Virus record (IMG/VR): IMGVR_UViG_3300017816_000002
Strand: one strand, 5' to 3'
From: a virus
DNA: 36,280 bases
The notes under the pieces were generated by a model that saw only the letters and a list, made by a program, of their open reading frames with translations, was not told the origin of the DNA and made no database searches. This document shows, piece by piece, positions 1,885 through 27,385 of this stretch. A program made the translations under genes and the position numbers. Positions within the stretch are counted from its first letter, which is position 1, and the number at the start of each line of letters is the position of its first letter.

Positions 1885-3851
1885 TGGCAGAGGCACAGAA
1901 TCGGGACGCCCTGAATGAAATGCGGCGCCGCTACGCGCTGGCGTCCGACCACGTCAAGGACGCATACGACAAGTCGCGTGATGACGTGCGCTTCGTGGAC
2001 GTCCCGGGGCACCAGTGGGACGCCAAGCTCAGGGCGCGCCGCGGCGACCGCCCGATCTACGAGTTCCCGAAGCTGGCCAGCCACTGCCGGCAGATCATCA
2101 ACGAGATGCGGCAGAGCCGGCCGCAGGCCAAGATCCGCGGCGTGGAGGAGTCCGACCGGGCATTGGCCGAGCTGATGCAGGGGATCATCCGCAACATCGA
2201 GTCCGTCTCGAACGCGGAGCAGGCCTACGACATCGGCTTCGACTTCGCGGTCAAGGGCGGCTTCGGCTTCTGGCGCATCTGCACCGACTACGCCAAGGAC
2301 GATGATTTCGAGCTGGACATATTCATCAAGCCGGTTCGCAACCCGTTCGCGGTCAAGTTTGACCCGGCCGCGGTGGAGATCGATCGGCGCGACGCCAACT
2401 TCTGCTTCGTGGAGGAGCTGATACCCGTCGAGGAGTTCCGGGCCCGTTATCCGAAGGCCGACCTCCATGACTTCGACGAGGACAGCGCCTGCAAGGACTG
2501 GCGCGAGGCCGGCCAGGTCCGGGTCGCCGAGTACTGGGAGAAAGTGCCGCGCAAGCGCCGCTTGCTGGCCCTGAGCGACGGCCGGGTGGTGTTCCTCGAC
2601 GACATCGCCGGGCAGTCCGGGCTGGGCGAGGATGAGGCGCTGGAGTTCCTGGCCGCGTCGGGCATCCAGGTGGTGCGGGAGCGCGAGGTCCAGAGCCACA
2701 AGGTCCAGATGCGGCTGACCAACGGGCACGAGTGGCTGACCGAGCCCTACGAGTTCCCGAGCAAGTTCATTCCCATCGTGCCGGTCTGGGGCAACATCCA
2801 GAACATCGACGGCGAGGACGTGTTCTACGGCATGGTCCGCCCGAATAAGGACCAGCAGCGCCTGCACAACGTGCACCGCACCGCGGCGATCGAGGCCGTG
2901 GCGAAGGCTCCGAAGGCGCCGTTCGTCGTCAAGCTTGGGTGGATCAAGGGGCTGGAGCGATTCTGGCGCAATGCCAACTCCGAGGACTACCCCTTCCTGC
3001 CGGTCAACGACGACGCCGACGCACTGCCGCAGCGCGCCCCCCAGGCCGAGATCCCGGCGGCGCTGCTGCAGCTGGCCGCGCTGGACAACGAGGACATCAA
3101 GGCCAGCACCGGCCAGTACGACGCCAGCCTCGGCGCCCGGTCCAACGAGACCAGCGGCCGCGCCATCACCGCGCGCAAGATGCAGGGCGCGACGGCCACA
3201 TTCAACTACATCGACAACCTGGCCTACGCCATCCGCTACAGCGCAGAGATCCTCGTGGACATGATCCCGCGGGTCTACGACACCCAGCGCGTGGTGCGCG
3301 TGCTCGGCGAGGACGGCGGCGCGAAGTGGAAGACCCTGTACCAGGAGGTCGTTGACCCGACCACCGGCCAGACCGTCATGCTCAACGACATCCGCAAGGG
3401 CAAGTACGACGTAACCGTGACTGTCGGGCCGAGCTACGCCACGCAGCGCTTGGAGGCTGTGGACGCGTTCACCACCCTGCTGGGTCAGATGGGGCCGGGT
3501 CTGCCGCCTCCGATTGCCTCGCTCATGGCGTACACGGCGATCCACAACATGGACTTGCCGGGGTCCGACAAGGTGGACGAGGCATTCCGCAAGCTGCTCG
3601 TGCAGATGGGGGTCATGCAGCCGCGGGAAGGTGACGAGCCGCCGCCGCCGCCGCAGCCCAGCCCGGCCGAAGTTGCCAAGGCTGAGAAGGACGCCGCGCA
3701 AGCAGCGCTCTACGGGGCGCAGGCAGAGCGGCAGCAGATCGAGAACCAGGCCGCGTCGCAGATTCTACAGGCTCCGATCATGCCGGCGATGGACTTCACG
3801 CCGCAAGGCGGATTCATGCCCGATCCGGGCTATGCAACTGGCGCCTACTGA
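1884..3851 (+). CDS. Portal protein (P22-type)
   Basis: 655 aa with a TGATG overlap to terL. Size, position and a Pro/Gln-rich C-terminal tail fit P22-family portals. Confidence 0.88.
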   Translation: MAEAQNRDALNEMRRRYALASDHVKDAYDKSRDDVRFVDVPGHQWDAKLRARRGDRPIYEFPKLASHCRQIINEMRQSRPQAKIRGVEESDRALAELMQGIIRNIESVSNAEQAYDIGFDFAVKGGFGFWRICTDYAKDDDFELDIFIKPVRNPFAVKFDPAAVEIDRRDANFCFVEELIPVEEFRARYPKADLHDFDEDSACKDWREAGQVRVAEYWEKVPRKRRLLALSDGRVVFLDDIAGQSGLGEDEALEFLAASGIQVVREREVQSHKVQMRLTNGHEWLTEPYEFPSKFIPIVPVWGNIQNIDGEDVFYGMVRPNKDQQRLHNVHRTAAIEAVAKAPKAPFVVKLGWIKGLERFWRNANSEDYPFLPVNDDADALPQRAPQAEIPAALLQLAALDNEDIKASTGQYDASLGARSNETSGRAITARKMQGATATFNYIDNLAYAIRYSAEILVDMIPRVYDTQRVVRVLGEDGGAKWKTLYQEVVDPTTGQTVMLNDIRKGKYDVTVTVGPSYATQRLEAVDAFTTLLGQMGPGLPPPIASLMAYTAIHNMDLPGSDKVDEAFRKLLVQMGVMQPREGDEPPPPPQPSPAEVAKAEKDAAQAALYGAQAERQQIENQAASQILQAPIMPAMDFTPQGGFMPDPGYATGAY

Positions 3852-14252: not shown

Positions 14253-15080
14253 ATGTCCGTCCATCAGCTGATCGACCCCTTGGTCGCCCTGGACAACCTG
14301 CTGGGCACCGGCATCGCCCCCGGCGGGAAACTGCACTTCTACGACCTGGGGACCACCACCCCGAAAAACACCTGGAAGGACGCCGACAAGGCCGCCCTGA
14401 ACACAAACCCGGTGGTTCTCAACTCTGCCGGGCGCGTCCCCTATCAGGTTTGGGGCGATGGCGACTATACCGTCAAATTCGAGGCAGCGGACGGCTCGAC
14501 CATCGTGGCGGCGGTGGAAATCCGTGACCCGGCACCTGCGGCCCAATCCCTGCCGCCCATGACCGGCAATGCGGGGAAGTTCCTGGCCACTGATGGGACT
14601 CAGGCCGAATGGCAGCCGATCATACAGCTCCCTGACCCGTCTGGCTCTGCTGGCATGTTCCCCGTGGTGAACTCGACCGGTGACGGGTACGTCCTCCAGT
14701 CCCAGCCTGAGATGCCGGAGCCTGAGTACTCTGGCAGCACTTCGATCTGGCGCTGGAAAACCGGCAGTGGCGATGACATGGCGATCCTGTTCGGCACCGG
14801 CACTGCGCCCGCCAGCAACGCCAAGGCCACCACTGCCAGCATCAGTTTCAGCCCTGCGTTCACCAAGTTGATGCACGTGAGCGTGACGACCACCGGATCG
14901 TCCTACACCAGCTCCGGCGCACTGGTGGACAACTCCGTTACGGGCTGGACGGCGGGCGCGGCCTCGTCTGGCGTGACGGTCAATTTCAACGTGTCCGACG
15001 ACGATACCAACTCGTCATGGAAGATCAGCACCAGCATCCCATTCTCGTGGGTCGCGTTCGGTTTCGTGGCGCCTGAGTAA
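14253..15080 (+). CDS. Tail fibre / tailspike protein 1
   Basis: 275 aa. The N-terminus LIDPLVALDNLLGTGIAPGGKLHFYDLGTTTPKNTWKD...NPVVLNSAGR resembles phage tail-fibre N-terminal anchor domains. Position is equivalent to P22 gene 9. Confidence 0.7.
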   Translation: MSVHQLIDPLVALDNLLGTGIAPGGKLHFYDLGTTTPKNTWKDADKAALNTNPVVLNSAGRVPYQVWGDGDYTVKFEAADGSTIVAAVEIRDPAPAAQSLPPMTGNAGKFLATDGTQAEWQPIIQLPDPSGSAGMFPVVNSTGDGYVLQSQPEMPEPEYSGSTSIWRWKTGSGDDMAILFGTGTAPASNAKATTASISFSPAFTKLMHVSVTTTGSSYTSSGALVDNSVTGWTAGAASSGVTVNFNVSDDDTNSSWKISTSIPFSWVAFGFVAPE

Positions 15081-16429
15081 TGAGCGATAGCCCGATTCTA
15101 CCCCGGCCCGAGACGTGGACCGGAACGAGGGAGTGGTATGCATTTTTTCGCTCCCTTGCGCAGAGGCAGCAACAAGGATCGCCTGACGTATCGGCGATTG
15201 AGCGCCGCGTAGAGAGGCTAGAGAACAAATCGCCCGACACGATGCTCGCCGCAGGGTCCGTTGAGATTAACGGCAGCGTCATCCAGCTCTCTGGTGATGT
15301 TTCGCAGCCGCTGGGCAGCCAGTTCTACGGTACGGATGCCCACGGAAATCGCGGCTGGTACACCGCCACGGATTCCATTGAAGCCGGCTACGGCATCATC
15401 AAATCGCCTGCGGACGGCTACACCTACAAGGGCGAGCTAAAGGACGAGGGCGACCTTCCGGGGACTGCCAGCGAGGGCGACGCCTACCTGATCGACGGCG
15501 CGTATTGGGTGTGGGAGTCGGGCGGCTGGGTGTACAAGGGAATCCCCTCCAACGTAGCGCGTCTGTCCCTGCCGGCTGGCACAAACAAGGATGATGGCCT
15601 GCTATGGAAGCCGGGTGCCGATCCTGACTACGAGGTCGCCCCCGTCGTCCGTAACCCGATGGCGGCCACGGGTGATTTGATCTATCGCAACTCTGCCGGA
15701 GCGCCTGCTCGGCTGGCGGCAGGGTCGAATGGCGATCATCTGGTGGTTTCAGGCGGCATTCCTGCGTGGCAGACGCCAACATACGGCAACCTCGTCGCTG
15801 GCTCCAACGTCACTCTCAGCGGCACGCTGACCGGTCGATTGGTCGGCTCTGGCAATGTGACGATCTCTGCCACCGGCGGCGGGGGCGGCTTCCCGTTCGT
15901 GCCACCGCCGCAAACGGGCTGGTCCTGGGTAAACCAGGGCAGCGCAACGATAACGAGCACCCCGGATTACCAGCTTATCTCCGGCGGCAGTTCGCCGTCG
16001 CTCAACTGCCGCATGCGCACAAGGGCCGCGCCCGCCGCGCCGTATGCAGTCACGATGGGGATCGAAGTGACCGCCAGAAGCAACAGCGACAGTGCCGTGG
16101 CGGCATTCTGGCGGGACAGTTCATCTGGCAGGCTGACGTTCTATGGATTCCTGAACGGGTCCATCCAGTCCGCAAACTACAACAACCCCAGCAGCTACAA
16201 TTCGCTGGTTTTCAACCACTCCGTGTTTCTTGGCCCGATTCTTTGGCTCCGTCTTGAGGATGATGGCGTCAACAGGTCGATCAGCTACTCAAGCAACGGG
16301 TACGACTTCATCGTCCTGCACACGTCGGCGCGAACCGATTTCATCACACCCGATGAGATCGGGTTCATGACCCTGGTGAACAACAGCATGACGCCGGCGC
16401 ATGCGCGACTCGTACACTGGCAGATCTAG
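15080..16429 (+). CDS. Tail fibre / receptor-binding protein 2
   Basis: 449 aa with a TAATG overlap to fibre 1. Gly/Ser/Thr-rich with a beta-rich C-terminus (jelly-roll/lectin-like by eye). Last gene of the late operon. Confidence 0.68.
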   Translation: MSDSPILPRPETWTGTREWYAFFRSLAQRQQQGSPDVSAIERRVERLENKSPDTMLAAGSVEINGSVIQLSGDVSQPLGSQFYGTDAHGNRGWYTATDSIEAGYGIIKSPADGYTYKGELKDEGDLPGTASEGDAYLIDGAYWVWESGGWVYKGIPSNVARLSLPAGTNKDDGLLWKPGADPDYEVAPVVRNPMAATGDLIYRNSAGAPARLAAGSNGDHLVVSGGIPAWQTPTYGNLVAGSNVTLSGTLTGRLVGSGNVTISATGGGGGFPFVPPPQTGWSWVNQGSATITSTPDYQLISGGSSPSLNCRMRTRAAPAAPYAVTMGIEVTARSNSDSAVAAFWRDSSSGRLTFYGFLNGSIQSANYNNPSSYNSLVFNHSVFLGPILWLRLEDDGVNRSISYSSNGYDFIVLHTSARTDFITPDEIGFMTLVNNSMTPAHARLVHWQI

Positions 16430-16589: not shown

Positions 16590-16608
16590 GGCCCCGTCCG
16601 GCGGGGCC
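16590..16608. terminator. GC hairpin between the convergent late operon and the three-gene cassette
   Basis: GGCCCCG (16590-16596) pairs with CGGGGCC (16602-16608) across a 5-nt loop. It lies 10 nt beyond the cassette stop. There is no U tract on either strand. Confidence 0.4.
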
Positions 16609-16617
16609 GGCTGGCGC

Positions 16618-16830
16618 TCATTCAATGGGGGGCAACCCCGCCTCGATCGCTGCGCACGCGAGCAGCAGCGTACGCGGCGTGCGGATCGGCTCGCCCGTCC
16701 GGCGGTTCGTGCCGCGCTCCTGGTCCTGGTAGCTCGTCAGCGCCAGGCCGAGGGCCTCGGCTGCGGCGCGCTGTGACAGGCCCAGGCGCTCGCGCCAGAT
16801 CCGCAGCGGGGTTGCCGGCGCCGCGCTCAT
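16618..16830 (-). CDS. Cassette gene 3: small XRE-family HTH protein (70 aa)
   Basis: Start ATG 16830 (ATGA overlap with gene 2). LRIWRERLGLSQRAAAEALGLALTSYQDQERG is a canonical XRE helix-turn-helix. Confidence 0.78.
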   Translation of the reverse strand: MSAAPATPLRIWRERLGLSQRAAAEALGLALTSYQDQERGTNRRTGEPIRTPRTLLLACAAIEAGLPPIE

Positions 16831-17261
16831 GCGCGCCCCGGCGGAAGGCTGACGTGCTGGCCAGCGGCGTCCTCGGCCGCGACCTCGGCCGCGATGTCCT
16901 CCGCTACCGGGTCCGCCGGCTCGCCGCGAGCGCGGGCCGCGTGATACCACGCGGTGATGATCGTGGCCAGGCCGTCGTCGCCGGCTTGCATAAGCGCGGC
17001 AGCGGCATCGCCGCTGGCCGCAGCGATCTGCTCCAACGGGGCCGTCTCAAACGACAGATCGCCGTTGCCCTCGCGGCGCAGCCGCAGGTCCGCAAACCGC
17101 AGGTTTTCGGGGATGGTGATGCGCAGCGTCTGTGCGGCCATCGCGGCCTCCACGTTGTGCACGATCCAGTCGGTCAGCCGCATGCCGGCGCCCCTGGACG
17201 CGCGAACCCAGCGGCCCTTGAGGGCCGCCGGGACGCGCAGGTGGATGATGGAGTCGGTCAT
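16827..17261 (-). CDS. Cassette gene 2: 144-aa protein with a ribbon-helix-helix-like N-terminus
   Basis: Start ATG 17261 (ATGA overlap with gene 1). IIHLRVPAALKGRWVRASRGAGMRLTDWIVHNVEAA fits a strand-helix-helix pattern. The C-terminal ~100 aa are unassigned. Confidence 0.72.
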   Translation of the reverse strand: MTDSIIHLRVPAALKGRWVRASRGAGMRLTDWIVHNVEAAMAAQTLRITIPENLRFADLRLRREGNGDLSFETAPLEQIAAASGDAAAALMQAGDDGLATIITAWYHAARARGEPADPVAEDIAAEVAAEDAAGQHVSLPPGRA

Positions 17262-17575
17262 TCGGCCAACGCCTCGGCCTCGGGGGAGCTGCAGAACCGC
17301 TCCCAGATGCGGTTGCGGTCGGTCAGCAGCCGCTCGGCGCGGGCGGCGAGGTCGGCGTCGTCGGCGTCCACGGTCGTCTCCCTGACGCACCCCTCGGCGC
17401 TCTGCACGTCGATCTGGATGTCGACCTCGTGCCCCTCGGCCGCCAGCTCGGCCAGGTCGTCGCGCCAGCGCTGCTCCATGAACTTGGCGAGAGCCTGGGC
17501 GGCCTCGTAGTTGTCGCGCCAGCCGTCGCCCAGGTTGCCGTCCAGAATCTGCGCGGTGATCGTGATGGTGGTCAT
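17258..17575 (-). CDS. Cassette gene 1: strongly acidic 105-aa protein
   Basis: AGGAG SD 7 nt upstream of ATG 17575. 24 Asp+Glu versus 10 Lys+Arg by my count. No recognisable family. Confidence 0.72.
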   Translation of the reverse strand: MTTITITAQILDGNLGDGWRDNYEAAQALAKFMEQRWRDDLAELAAEGHEVDIQIDVQSAEGCVRETTVDADDADLAARAERLLTDRNRIWERFCSSPEAEALAE

Positions 17576-17644
17576 GACGTTTCTCCTGTCGTGGAATCCC
17601 GGTTCCGCCGGGGCGGCGGTCGGGCTGTCCCCGACCGTGGTGCC

Positions 17645-17673
17645 AGTAAATCACGACTGCGCGGCGCAGTCAA
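17645..17673 (-). promoter_or_regulatory. Candidate sigma70 promoter of the three-gene cassette with an overlapping palindromic operator
   Basis: Minus-strand TTGACT (17668-17673), a 17-nt spacer, then TTTACT (17645-17650). The perfect 17-nt palindrome GACTGCGC-G-GCGCAGTC (17655-17671) spans the -35 and the spacer. Confidence 0.5.
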
Positions 17674-17708
17674 CAGGGCGCGGCGACCGTTCGTCGGGAA
17701 ATGGGCGG

Positions 17709-26264: not shown

Positions 26265-26317
26265 TTTATTTGTCGAGCAGCCGACGAACGGTAGGGCGAA
26301 GTTCTACATAGCCGGGC

Positions 26318-26482: not shown

Positions 26483-27235
26483 TCAAGGTCTAGACTGCCG
26501 GGCGCGCCCTCCTCTAGGGCCCAGCTGCATGTTCCACATGCTCAGGCGCTTTTCTCCGTAGTGGGAACTTCCGCCCAGCCGCCTCACTCCGATCTTCCCC
26601 GCCACGTGAGCCGCCAAGGCGCTCTTTGCGGCGCTCGCCTCCGGCCGGGTGTCGTGGGCGTTCTTGTGCCACGCGATCGCGCCGGTCAGCAGATCCGCCA
26701 CCTGGATCAATCGGGATCCCTTTGAGTTGCGATGGGCGACGCGGGTGAAGGGCCGGTGCTGGGGGGTCCCTAGATCCTTCGCCGCCCGTCTATTGAGGCA
26801 GGTCTGCAGCTCTAGCAGGTCCCGCGCGGTGTTCCTCGCGTCCAGGTCGACCACGATCTTTTCCAGCCGCACGAACGGCTTGCCGGCTCTGTGGTACAGG
26901 ATCTGGAACAGTAACTTGTTGAAGCCAAGTTCGCTGTCACCCTCGTTGTAGGCCCGGTGATCGAGCAGGCTGGTATCGACAATGAGGGCATGGGCCTCGC
27001 TGCCCAGCGGGACCATCTCGTCGAAGTAGAAGTCGACGGCAGCCCTGTACGCGGCTAACTTCCCGCCGCTGACCTTGGTCCACTTGAGCTCACTGTTCTG
27101 GATCCCGTGGTCGGCCAGGCGGGCGTCGAGATCGTGTTCAAACTGCCGCACCATCTGGGCCGGGCAGCTAACGAAGCCGAGCACCATGTACCGGTGCGCG
27201 TTCTGGCTGCTTTCGTCGAGGAAGACGTGCCGCAC
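26483..27235 (-). CDS. DUF3800-family protein (250 aa)
   Basis: The N-terminal MRHVFLDES motif and the C-terminal LIQVADLLTGAI motif are the two signature motifs of DUF3800. Uses more A/T-ending codons (tta, aga, cta, ata, tca) than neighbouring genes. Confidence 0.82.
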   Translation of the reverse strand: MRHVFLDESSQNAHRYMVLGFVSCPAQMVRQFEHDLDARLADHGIQNSELKWTKVSGGKLAAYRAAVDFYFDEMVPLGSEAHALIVDTSLLDHRAYNEGDSELGFNKLLFQILYHRAGKPFVRLEKIVVDLDARNTARDLLELQTCLNRRAAKDLGTPQHRPFTRVAHRNSKGSRLIQVADLLTGAIAWHKNAHDTRPEASAAKSALAAHVAGKIGVRRLGGSSHYGEKRLSMWNMQLGPRGGRARQSRP

Positions 27236-27385
27236 CTACTTCACCCAGCCGCCCGTCCACCGCACGCGCCCCACGACCGTGAGCCCGTCGGCCAGCGGCC
27301 GCGGATCCTTCCAGTTGTGGTCTCCGTCGGGGTTGTCCGACACGAACACCACCTGGCCTACCGTTCGTCGGCTGCTGCGGGGAAA

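Follow-up and report, generated by a model that had tools for sequence, protein, structure and literature searches.

We analyzed a cassette of three minus-strand genes in a viral DNA of 36,280 nucleotides (IMG/VR record IMGVR_UViG_3300017816_000002; this whole stretch is called the window below). Gene 1 (17575→17258) encodes a protein of 105 amino acids (aa) with a pI of 4.2 and 24 Asp and Glu residues against 10 Lys and Arg residues, gene 2 (17261→16827) encodes a protein of 144 aa and gene 3 (16830→16618) one of 70 aa; as read from the sequence, ATGA overlaps couple both the gene 1/gene 2 and the gene 2/gene 3 junctions. Upstream of gene 1 lie a promoter with a palindrome over its –35 hexamer and spacer, a leader hairpin and an AGGAG Shine-Dalgarno (SD) sequence. 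These elements had been pointed out in an earlier reading of the letters alone (the original prediction), and when we re-read them from the sequence, all of its coordinates, the ATGA overlaps, the acidity of gene 1, the promoter, the perfect 17-nt palindrome, the hairpin and the SD sequence were found to be correct. The original prediction regarded the cassette as a self-regulated moron with its own operator-controlled promoter, a view that our analysis upholds, and considered three functions for it: a second immunity region with an antirepressor, a toxin-antitoxin-like system, or an anti-defence protein under repressor control. The last of these fits the homologies described below, and the cassette is very probably a self-repressed anti-CRISPR or anti-defence (acr-aca) operon, a moron in the genome of a P22-like temperate phage. 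A match of its genes to a well-characterized module, which the original prediction had named as counting against its own reading, was largely found, in that the cassette is of the published acrIC6-aca operon type (PMC7913775, PMC9410881, PMC9410906) and does not represent a new system.

Gene 3 had been called an XRE helix-turn-helix (HTH) protein, and it indeed matches HTH_3/HTH_31 in Pfam; however, it is an Aca6 homologue rather than a generic XRE protein. Along its entire length it shares 52% identity with WP_035450933.1 from Alcanivorax sp., the Aca6 reference (E = 6e-17), and it is 77% identical to WP_123771529.1 from Vulcaniibacterium, a member of the published Aca6 set (reference and family set from Shehreen et al. 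2022, PMC9410906). Judging from these homologies, gene 3 is an Aca6-family HTH repressor.

Genes 1 and 2 had both been described as belonging to no recognizable family. This description still applies to gene 1, which is an orphan, but not to gene 2, which belongs by homology to the AcrIC6 family. The family libraries Pfam, NCBIfam, PADLOC and PHROGs contained nothing that matched gene 2, and its assignment comes from homologues in operons that carry published labels. With WP_074980465.1 of Pseudomonas citronellolis, gene 2 shares 57% identity from end to end; the neighbours of this homologue are a 94-aa cargo protein (WP_074980466.1, which is AcrIC7Pci, a homologue of the AcrIC7 reference) and a 65-aa protein identical to PDB 7XI5/TGC30851.1 (Aca10). 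In a locus of P. stutzeri (L009), the gene 2 homologue EWC40191.1 is accompanied by the AcrIC7 reference itself (WP_003294373.1/EWC40192.1) as cargo and by a regulator that is TrfB-like, as Aca4 is. The presence of acrIC6 in both the P. citronellolis and the P. stutzeri loci was stated by Leon et al. 2021 (PMC7913775), and the operon name acrIC7-acrIC6-aca10 is that of Lee et al. 2022 (PMC9410881). The supplement of Shehreen et al. labels the operon AcrIC7, AcrIC6 (WP_080050315.1) and Aca10, and its promoter string is identical to the leader of our locus L007; the same study found that aca6 homologues associate with acrIC6 (PMC9410906). The cassette has three features of an acr-aca operon, namely a 3΄ HTH gene homologous to a validated Aca, an inverted repeat over the core promoter and an Acr homologue upstream of the regulator.

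The acrIC7-acrIC6-aca10 operon of P. citronellolis and the acrIC7-acrIC6-aca4 operon of P. stutzeri have the same gene order as the window (a variable acr, acrIC6 and a small HTH aca), and they likewise carry a palindrome between –35 and –10, the same leader (hairpin, CCGCCCCGGCGGAACCGGG and SD sequence) and a fixed ATG position. However, the regulator of the window is of the Aca6 type, not of the Aca10 or Aca4 type, and its operator sequence differs; moreover, it is a P22-like phage that carries the cassette, and the host would be an organism of high GC content. The first gene of the window is also an unrelated orphan: a distant homology between gene 1 and AcrIC7, considered for the similar order of their secondary-structure elements, was rejected at a BLASTP E of ~1 and an hhalign profile probability of 0.2%.

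The neighbourhoods of homologues, a survey of which the original prediction had proposed, were compared in loci fetched with a relative of gene 2 (18 genomic, 47 viral and 6 further loci, numbered with an L below), and the layout of the window was found to be shared by ~50 related loci. The common order is a –35 hexamer, a locus-specific palindrome in the spacer, a –10 hexamer, a variable hairpin, CCGCCCCGGCGGAACCGGG(A/C)(T/A)TCC, TGATAGGAGCAACATC and ATG. After the ATG come one to four small hypervariable cargo genes, followed by a gene with a ribbon-helix-helix (RHH) module, which corresponds to gene 2, and then by a small regulator. The slot between the leader and gene 2 held 73 open reading frames (ORFs) in 45 BLAST clusters, and among 50 that were scanned, essentially none belonged to a Pfam or NCBIfam family. 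The cargo includes AcrIC7 in L009 and L033 and AcrIC7Pci in L007 and L025. The cassette was also found on plasmids and in unrelated phages and bacterial genomes.

The promoter of the window, as read from the sequence, consists of the –35 hexamer TTGACT (17668..17673, minus strand), a spacer of 17 nt and the –10 hexamer TTTACT (17650-17645). A TG one base 5΄ of the latter makes it an extended –10 (TG-a-TTTACT; 17645..17653, minus strand), as in the sister loci; those of the Aca6 type have TGn-GATTAT or TGn-GATGAT and have the TGn extension in common. Where the window has TTGACT, the ~50 related loci have TTGAC or TTGCA hexamers, and the published acrIC7-acrIC6-aca10 promoter has its –35 at the equivalent position (PMC9410881). 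The perfect 17-bp palindrome GACTGCGC-C-GCGCAGTC (17655..17671), the centre base of which is G on the plus strand, covers the –35 hexamer and the spacer.

Between –35 and –10, nearly all related loci contain a long palindrome whose sequence varies with the type of regulator encoded downstream. In Aca6-like loci, palindromes of 17 bp begin at the third base of the –35 hexamer. L034, in which the homologue of gene 3 has 75% identity to that of the window, has exactly the palindrome of the window, and those of L015 (GACGTCGT-A-ACGACGTC) and L048 (GACCGCCT-T-AGGCGGTC) are perfect and have the same 17-bp geometry, so that these three sites and the window share the form GAC-N5-N-N5-GTC; L032 has a 17-bp near-palindrome with one mismatch. 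In Aca10-like loci the palindrome reads ..ACGCTCA-T-TGAGCGT.., and the published Aca10 operator ATACGCTCATTGAGCGTAT is the palindrome at the equivalent place in L007; this site is bound by Aca10 in electrophoretic mobility shift assays (PMC9410881). Aca4-like loci have TACAC-N3-TTAA-N3-GTGTA. Because the DNA-reading β-strand of the RHH module is conserved, whereas the palindromes change with the type of HTH regulator, the palindrome of the window is most likely the operator of Aca6 (gene 3) and not a site for the RHH module. In this respect gene 2 would differ from AcrIE10/Aca14, which likewise combines an RHH module with a small helical domain in an acr operon with a promoter inverted repeat. 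AcrIE10 (PDB 8JI9) has no sequence or fold match to gene 2, and, in contrast to the AcrIE10/Aca14 type, the window cassette has a separate HTH Aca. Dual control by the RHH and HTH proteins is possible.

These features suggest the following course of events. Upon DNA entry, the sigma70-type promoter (TTGACT-17-TTTACT with the TG extension) would fire in an early burst, and a single mRNA with a structured leader would yield, through coupled translation, gene 1 protein, the AcrIC6 homologue and Aca6. Dimers of Aca6 would then occupy the 17-bp palindrome over the –35 hexamer and spacer and close the promoter. Negative feedback of this type has been shown for Aca families. The products of genes 1 and 2 would be the payload, directed against a type I CRISPR-Cas system or another defence of the host. 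A moron that had lacked annotation, in an uncultured P22-like phage of high GC content, would in this way gain a function class.

Several observations weigh against this interpretation. The membership of gene 2 in the AcrIC6 family comes through the operon-labelled homologues rather than the reference WP_080050315.1, and AcrIC6 is a weak inhibitor of type I-C and type I-E systems (efficiency of plating ~0.01; PMC7913775). The sole published inverted repeat of the Aca6 family, atgcGCAC(N3)gTGCgctt, differs from the palindrome of the window (PMC9410906). The –10 hexamer of the cassette promoter is non-canonical, and a scan for consensus promoters was silent at 17645-17673, because this –10 lacks an A at position 2. 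Perfect 8+8 palindromes are also not rare in the window (five observed, compared with 6.1 expected from simulation). The significance of the promoter and the palindrome therefore rests on their position and on their conservation across related loci. With regard to gene 1, a fold search found nothing significant in PDB or BFVD, the protein resembles no validated Acr in sequence or fold, and its distant homologues occur outside RHH cassettes, amid other accessory genes of mobile elements.

The N-terminus of gene 2 had been described as RHH-like, and the fold searches bear this out. The RHH module (residues 1-45; 17127..17261, minus strand) is 72% identical to residues 9-47 of AcrIF25 (PDB 8jdh; E = 7.6e-11, profile E = 1.3e-14). 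This was the sole match of gene 2 among PDB sequences, and the profile likewise aligned the N-terminus alone. In Foldseek, an AlphaFold2 model of gene 2 with a predicted local distance difference test (pLDDT) value of 77 matched exclusively RHH folds, namely AcrIF25, Arc, CopG and RHH antitoxins. AcrIF25 (PDB 8JDH/8JDI) is an anti-CRISPR that extracts Cas7f from the type I-F Cascade; however, its Cas7f-binding C-terminal domain (CTD) is absent from gene 2, and Foldseek aligned 70 columns of the two proteins with a template modelling (TM) score of 0.24. We note that the name AcrIF25 is used twice, for the RHH protein of 8JDH/8JDI and for an unrelated HTH protein of Acinetobacter (bioRxiv 10.1101/2024.01.05.574328).

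The CTD of gene 2 (16827..17126, minus strand) is helical, of the AcrIC6 type, and ends in a conserved disordered tail, ...AEDAAGQxxSxPPGRA. It had no sequence or fold match in PDB; as a Cas7 binder resembling AcrIF25 or AcrIE10 it was rejected, since no likeness in sequence or fold was found. Gene 2 has more than 347 full-length homologues, among which conservation runs through to the C-terminal tail. In their RHH β-strand, L8 and R9 are invariant and I6, H7 and V10 are at least 90% conserved. The AcrIC6-type tail (..AEDAAGQxxSxxPGRA; 16827-16880 in the window) is invariant and predicted to be disordered, and a 70-aa protein of L067 (2371-2583) consists of the RHH module and this conserved tail with nothing else. 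This tail resembles a short linear interaction motif. In five loci (L020, L058, L060, L061 and L062), the CTD is encoded as a separate gene.

A search with the 45 residues of the RHH module yielded 211 clusters among 1.84 billion representatives at 50% identity. In the best 150 of these 211 clusters (P0250-P0398), some proteins of which may be metagenome fragments, the module is ~67% identical to the query; 43 were RHH-only, 20 had a short tail and 87 had a CTD of at least 45 aa. These 87 CTDs fell into 46 BLAST clusters, the largest being the AcrIC6 type (23 members), while the AcrIF25 type had two members. Since a near-constant RHH module is joined to many unrelated CTDs and also occurs alone, these patterns suggest that it has a conserved function of its own.

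Exchange between the cargo slot and the RHH gene was seen for AcrIF25. In L048, a gene at 1152-1499 encodes a stand-alone AcrIF25 Cas7-binding domain (E = 1.4e-46 to residues 45-157 of 8jdh) directly upstream of an AcrIC6-type gene. In L064, L065 and L082, full RHH-AcrIF25 homologues stand at the position of gene 2 behind the same leader and are followed by Aca6-like genes. The occurrence of this domain both alone in the cargo and fused to the RHH module shows, at the level of homology, that domains have been shuffled between the cargo and RHH-gene positions.

We further analyzed the leader, which is common to acr operons of at least three Aca families (Aca4, Aca6 and Aca10). An unbiased sample came from scans anchored solely on the SD region, which added 23 viral and 68 metagenomic loci. 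Hairpin 1 of the window (17617..17637, minus strand; RNAfold) has an 8-bp stem, the sequence of which varies between loci while its place is conserved; a hairpin at this place was the usual prediction for 105 unique leaders, with a mean z of –1.95 and 75% of values below –1. It is followed by the near-invariant element CCGCCCCGGCGGAACCGGG (17598..17616, minus strand), which contains the hairpin S2 and may form an H-type pseudoknot with S1. The S2 helix has 5 bp (17612-17608 with 17602-17598, CCCGG with CCGGG), and the S1 helix would pair 17616-17614 with 17607-17605 (CCG with CGG). Of 72 sequences searched (71 loci and the window), 60 carried the 20-mer CCCGGCGGAACCGGGATTCC, allowing up to four mismatches, at an upstream position of the same strand, and in most loci the first cargo ATG is located 17 nt past the leader motif.

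In 50 distinct variants, 98.5% of the cells of the S1+S2 model were paired, four of them as U-G, and four pairs showed double-sided (compensatory) changes. The score of the model was reached by none of 500 shuffles and was far lower in slid controls, and S2 was also predicted independently by RNAalifold. Variant forms of S2 were CGGGG/CCCCG, CTAGG/CCTAG, CTCGG/CCGAG, CAGGG/CCCTG and CCAGG/CCTGG, and those of S1 were CUG/CAG and CCC/GGG. The S2 helix is solidly supported, whereas the S1 pairing, and with it the pseudoknot, is tentative, as few events support it. Rfam gave no match to the leader (17573-17640), even at E values up to 10.

Downstream of this element (17583..17595, minus strand), an invariant UCC (17595-17593) can pair with the GGA of the SD sequence AGGAG (17587-17583). 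With 3 bp this anti-SD pairing is weak, and we propose it tentatively. A fourth base pair was rejected: it is compensated in L008 and L057 and mismatched in at least five loci including the window. In some loci the leader motif is doubled at a distance of 240-390 nt (at 2818 and 3209 in L038/L041 and at 3420 and 3658 in L059), and these appear to be tandem units of leader and cargo within one locus.

An RNA motif with covariation has been described in the leaders of aca10 operons by Feussner et al. 2026 (PMC13551039), who found neither binding of the motif by purified Aca10 nor co-evolution of the two. It is presumably the leader element seen here; the two layouts agree in the promoter inverted repeat, in a hairpin immediately downstream of the transcription start and in a conserved position of the start codon. 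The leader described here spans Aca4-, Aca6- and Aca10-type operons and contains a second, nearly invariant hairpin/pseudoknot.

These data bear on a reading in which gene 2 is mainly a second regulator, its RHH module recognizing either the leader, as RNA or DNA, or a box (CCGACGAACGGTA, described below) as a universal layer over the Aca operator, so that gene 1 alone would be the payload. We consider this a possible though less than probable explanation. Besides the conserved RHH β-strand in loci with different promoter palindromes and the almost invariant leader, it would account for the finding that an RHH gene follows downstream in 19 of the 21 informative loci for which the leader was the sole selection criterion, and that the corresponding place in the operon is taken by stand-alone RHH genes in L087 and L084 (57 and 73 aa, respectively). 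The weakness of AcrIC6 as an inhibitor, the failure of Aca10 to bind the RNA motif and the use of RHH modules as Aca in AcrIE10 and Aca14 (PMC13530269, PMC13551039) point in the same direction. However, RNA binding is unusual for RHH proteins, conservation throughout the AcrIC6 CTD suggests a function of its own, and AcrIC6 did give measurable inhibition of type I-C and I-E systems (PMC7913775). In addition, a strict link between the RHH gene and the leader was rejected and recognition of the leader by the RHH protein is weakened, because in L085 and L094 the leader and cargo lead straight to an Aca10-like gene without an RHH gene.

Within the acr-aca interpretation, a related and rather unlikely mechanism is that the RHH module and the structured leader form a portable control unit in which the RHH protein recognizes the leader and AcrIC6 acts mainly as a regulator. 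If this were true, the pair of RHH module and leader would offer a new and very productive handle in the search for anti-defence proteins (at least 46 CTDs, two of which are validated Acrs, and at least 45 cargo families), and gene 1 would count among these proteins. The link would also explain why AcrIC6 is ubiquitous despite its weakness, and the RNA motif left unbound by Aca10 would have its partner in the RHH protein.

Of the structure and fold searches that the original prediction had suggested, those with the RHH module of gene 2 gave matches, while gene 1 and the CTD of gene 2 remained unmatched. Gene 1 had no match in Pfam, NCBIfam, PADLOC or PDB sequences and non-significant matches in PHROGs (E at least 0.19), and only 23 homologues were found among 5.8 billion clusters. 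Its AlphaFold2 model shows an alpha/beta fold with a pLDDT of 92.7. Matches to DinI and MIF/tautomerase-like folds had E values of 0.04 or worse, and the best plausible analogue, DinI, was not significant (TM score 0.45-0.55, E = 0.1). Gene 1 is therefore best described as an orphan acidic protein in the variable cargo slot and as a candidate anti-CRISPR or anti-defence effector; with a 23-member orphan family and a confident, unmatched fold, it is nominated here as such.

The payload might instead be Aca-controlled but directed against a defence other than CRISPR, such as restriction-modification or abortive infection, with gene 1 perhaps acting as an acidic DNA mimic. Non-Acr anti-defence genes are frequent in Aca-regulated operons (PMC13551039, PMC7648647), and the low pI of gene 1, its weak likeness to DinI, a small acidic RecA binder, and the setting of its distant homologues among mobile-element accessory genes are consistent with such a target. 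However, the DinI match is not significant, and in sister loci the cargo with validated function (AcrIC7 and the AcrIF25 domain) acts against CRISPR. On balance, a non-CRISPR target seems doubtful.

The two other options of the original prediction fared poorly. A tripartite toxin-antitoxin or addiction module, in which gene 1 or the gene 2 CTD would be the toxin and the RHH and HTH proteins the antitoxin or regulator, is very improbable: RHH and XRE folds are common in antitoxins, TacA, AtaR, VapB and MazE were among the weak Foldseek matches of the RHH module, and gene 3 has faint Pfam matches to Xre-like and MqsA antitoxin families, but from locus to locus the first gene is freely exchanged among 45 unrelated families, Pfam, NCBIfam, PADLOC and the fold search yielded no toxin family or fold, and both gene 2 and gene 3 are members of published Acr or Aca families. 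A second, immI-like immunity region as in P22, with RHH repressors over an antirepressor, would suit a P22-like phage and an RHH module resembling Arc (Foldseek E ~1-2), but it is just as improbable, given that family searches found no antirepressor (Ant-like) match, that plasmids, unrelated phages and bacterial genomes also have the cassette, and that its regulators belong to Aca families.

The genome in which this putative acr-aca operon resides is that of a P22-like phage, as indicated by its large terminase, its P22-type portal (E = 2e-187) and its P22 coat protein; its GC content is 68%, no tRNA was found in the window, and an attP site was likewise not located. The cassette is located directly downstream of a P4-type integrase gene (18896→17709) and an AlpA-type excisionase gene, and the end of a tail-fibre gene (15080..16429) faces it from the other side. 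Deposited phage genomes contained neither a DNA nor a protein match, and a plasmid search gave a single match. Ten nucleotides past the stop codon of gene 3 lies a GC-rich hairpin with a 7-bp stem and no U-tract (GGCCCCG-CCGGA-CGGGGCC; 16590..16608, minus strand; –21.1 kcal/mol and z –1.15 by RNAfold). A terminator scan of the window did not call it, and it is a possible terminator on weak evidence.

In the plasmid-like context of one related cassette (L001-L006; 1-5178, minus strand), we observed a gene for a DUF3584 SMC-like protein of 1242 aa with two partner genes, together with a TrfA-like gene and an IS605 OrfB gene. This element thus has a defence-like system next to the anti-defence cassette.

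Finally, a 10-mer, CGACGAACGG (in its extended form ~CCGACGAACGGTA), was found in either orientation 20-30 nt upstream of the –35 hexamer in many of these acr promoters, and it was present in 24 of 167 fetched loci. The window contains four copies (17687-17696, minus; 2919, minus; 26282, plus; 27361, minus), compared with ~0.2 expected by our own estimate. In L011, inverted copies at 3600 and 4692 bracket the whole cassette. The box might mark a cassette boundary, serve in recombination or be the site of a shared regulator. Elsewhere in the window, a single DUF3800 gene (Pfam E = 2e-12; ORF 26483..27235, minus strand) lies between perfect inverted repeats of 19 bp (26277-26295 and 27356-27375; GCAGCCGACGAACGGTAGG and the reverse complement), which contain the CGACGAACGG box; together with its repeats, this gene looks like a second inserted moron.

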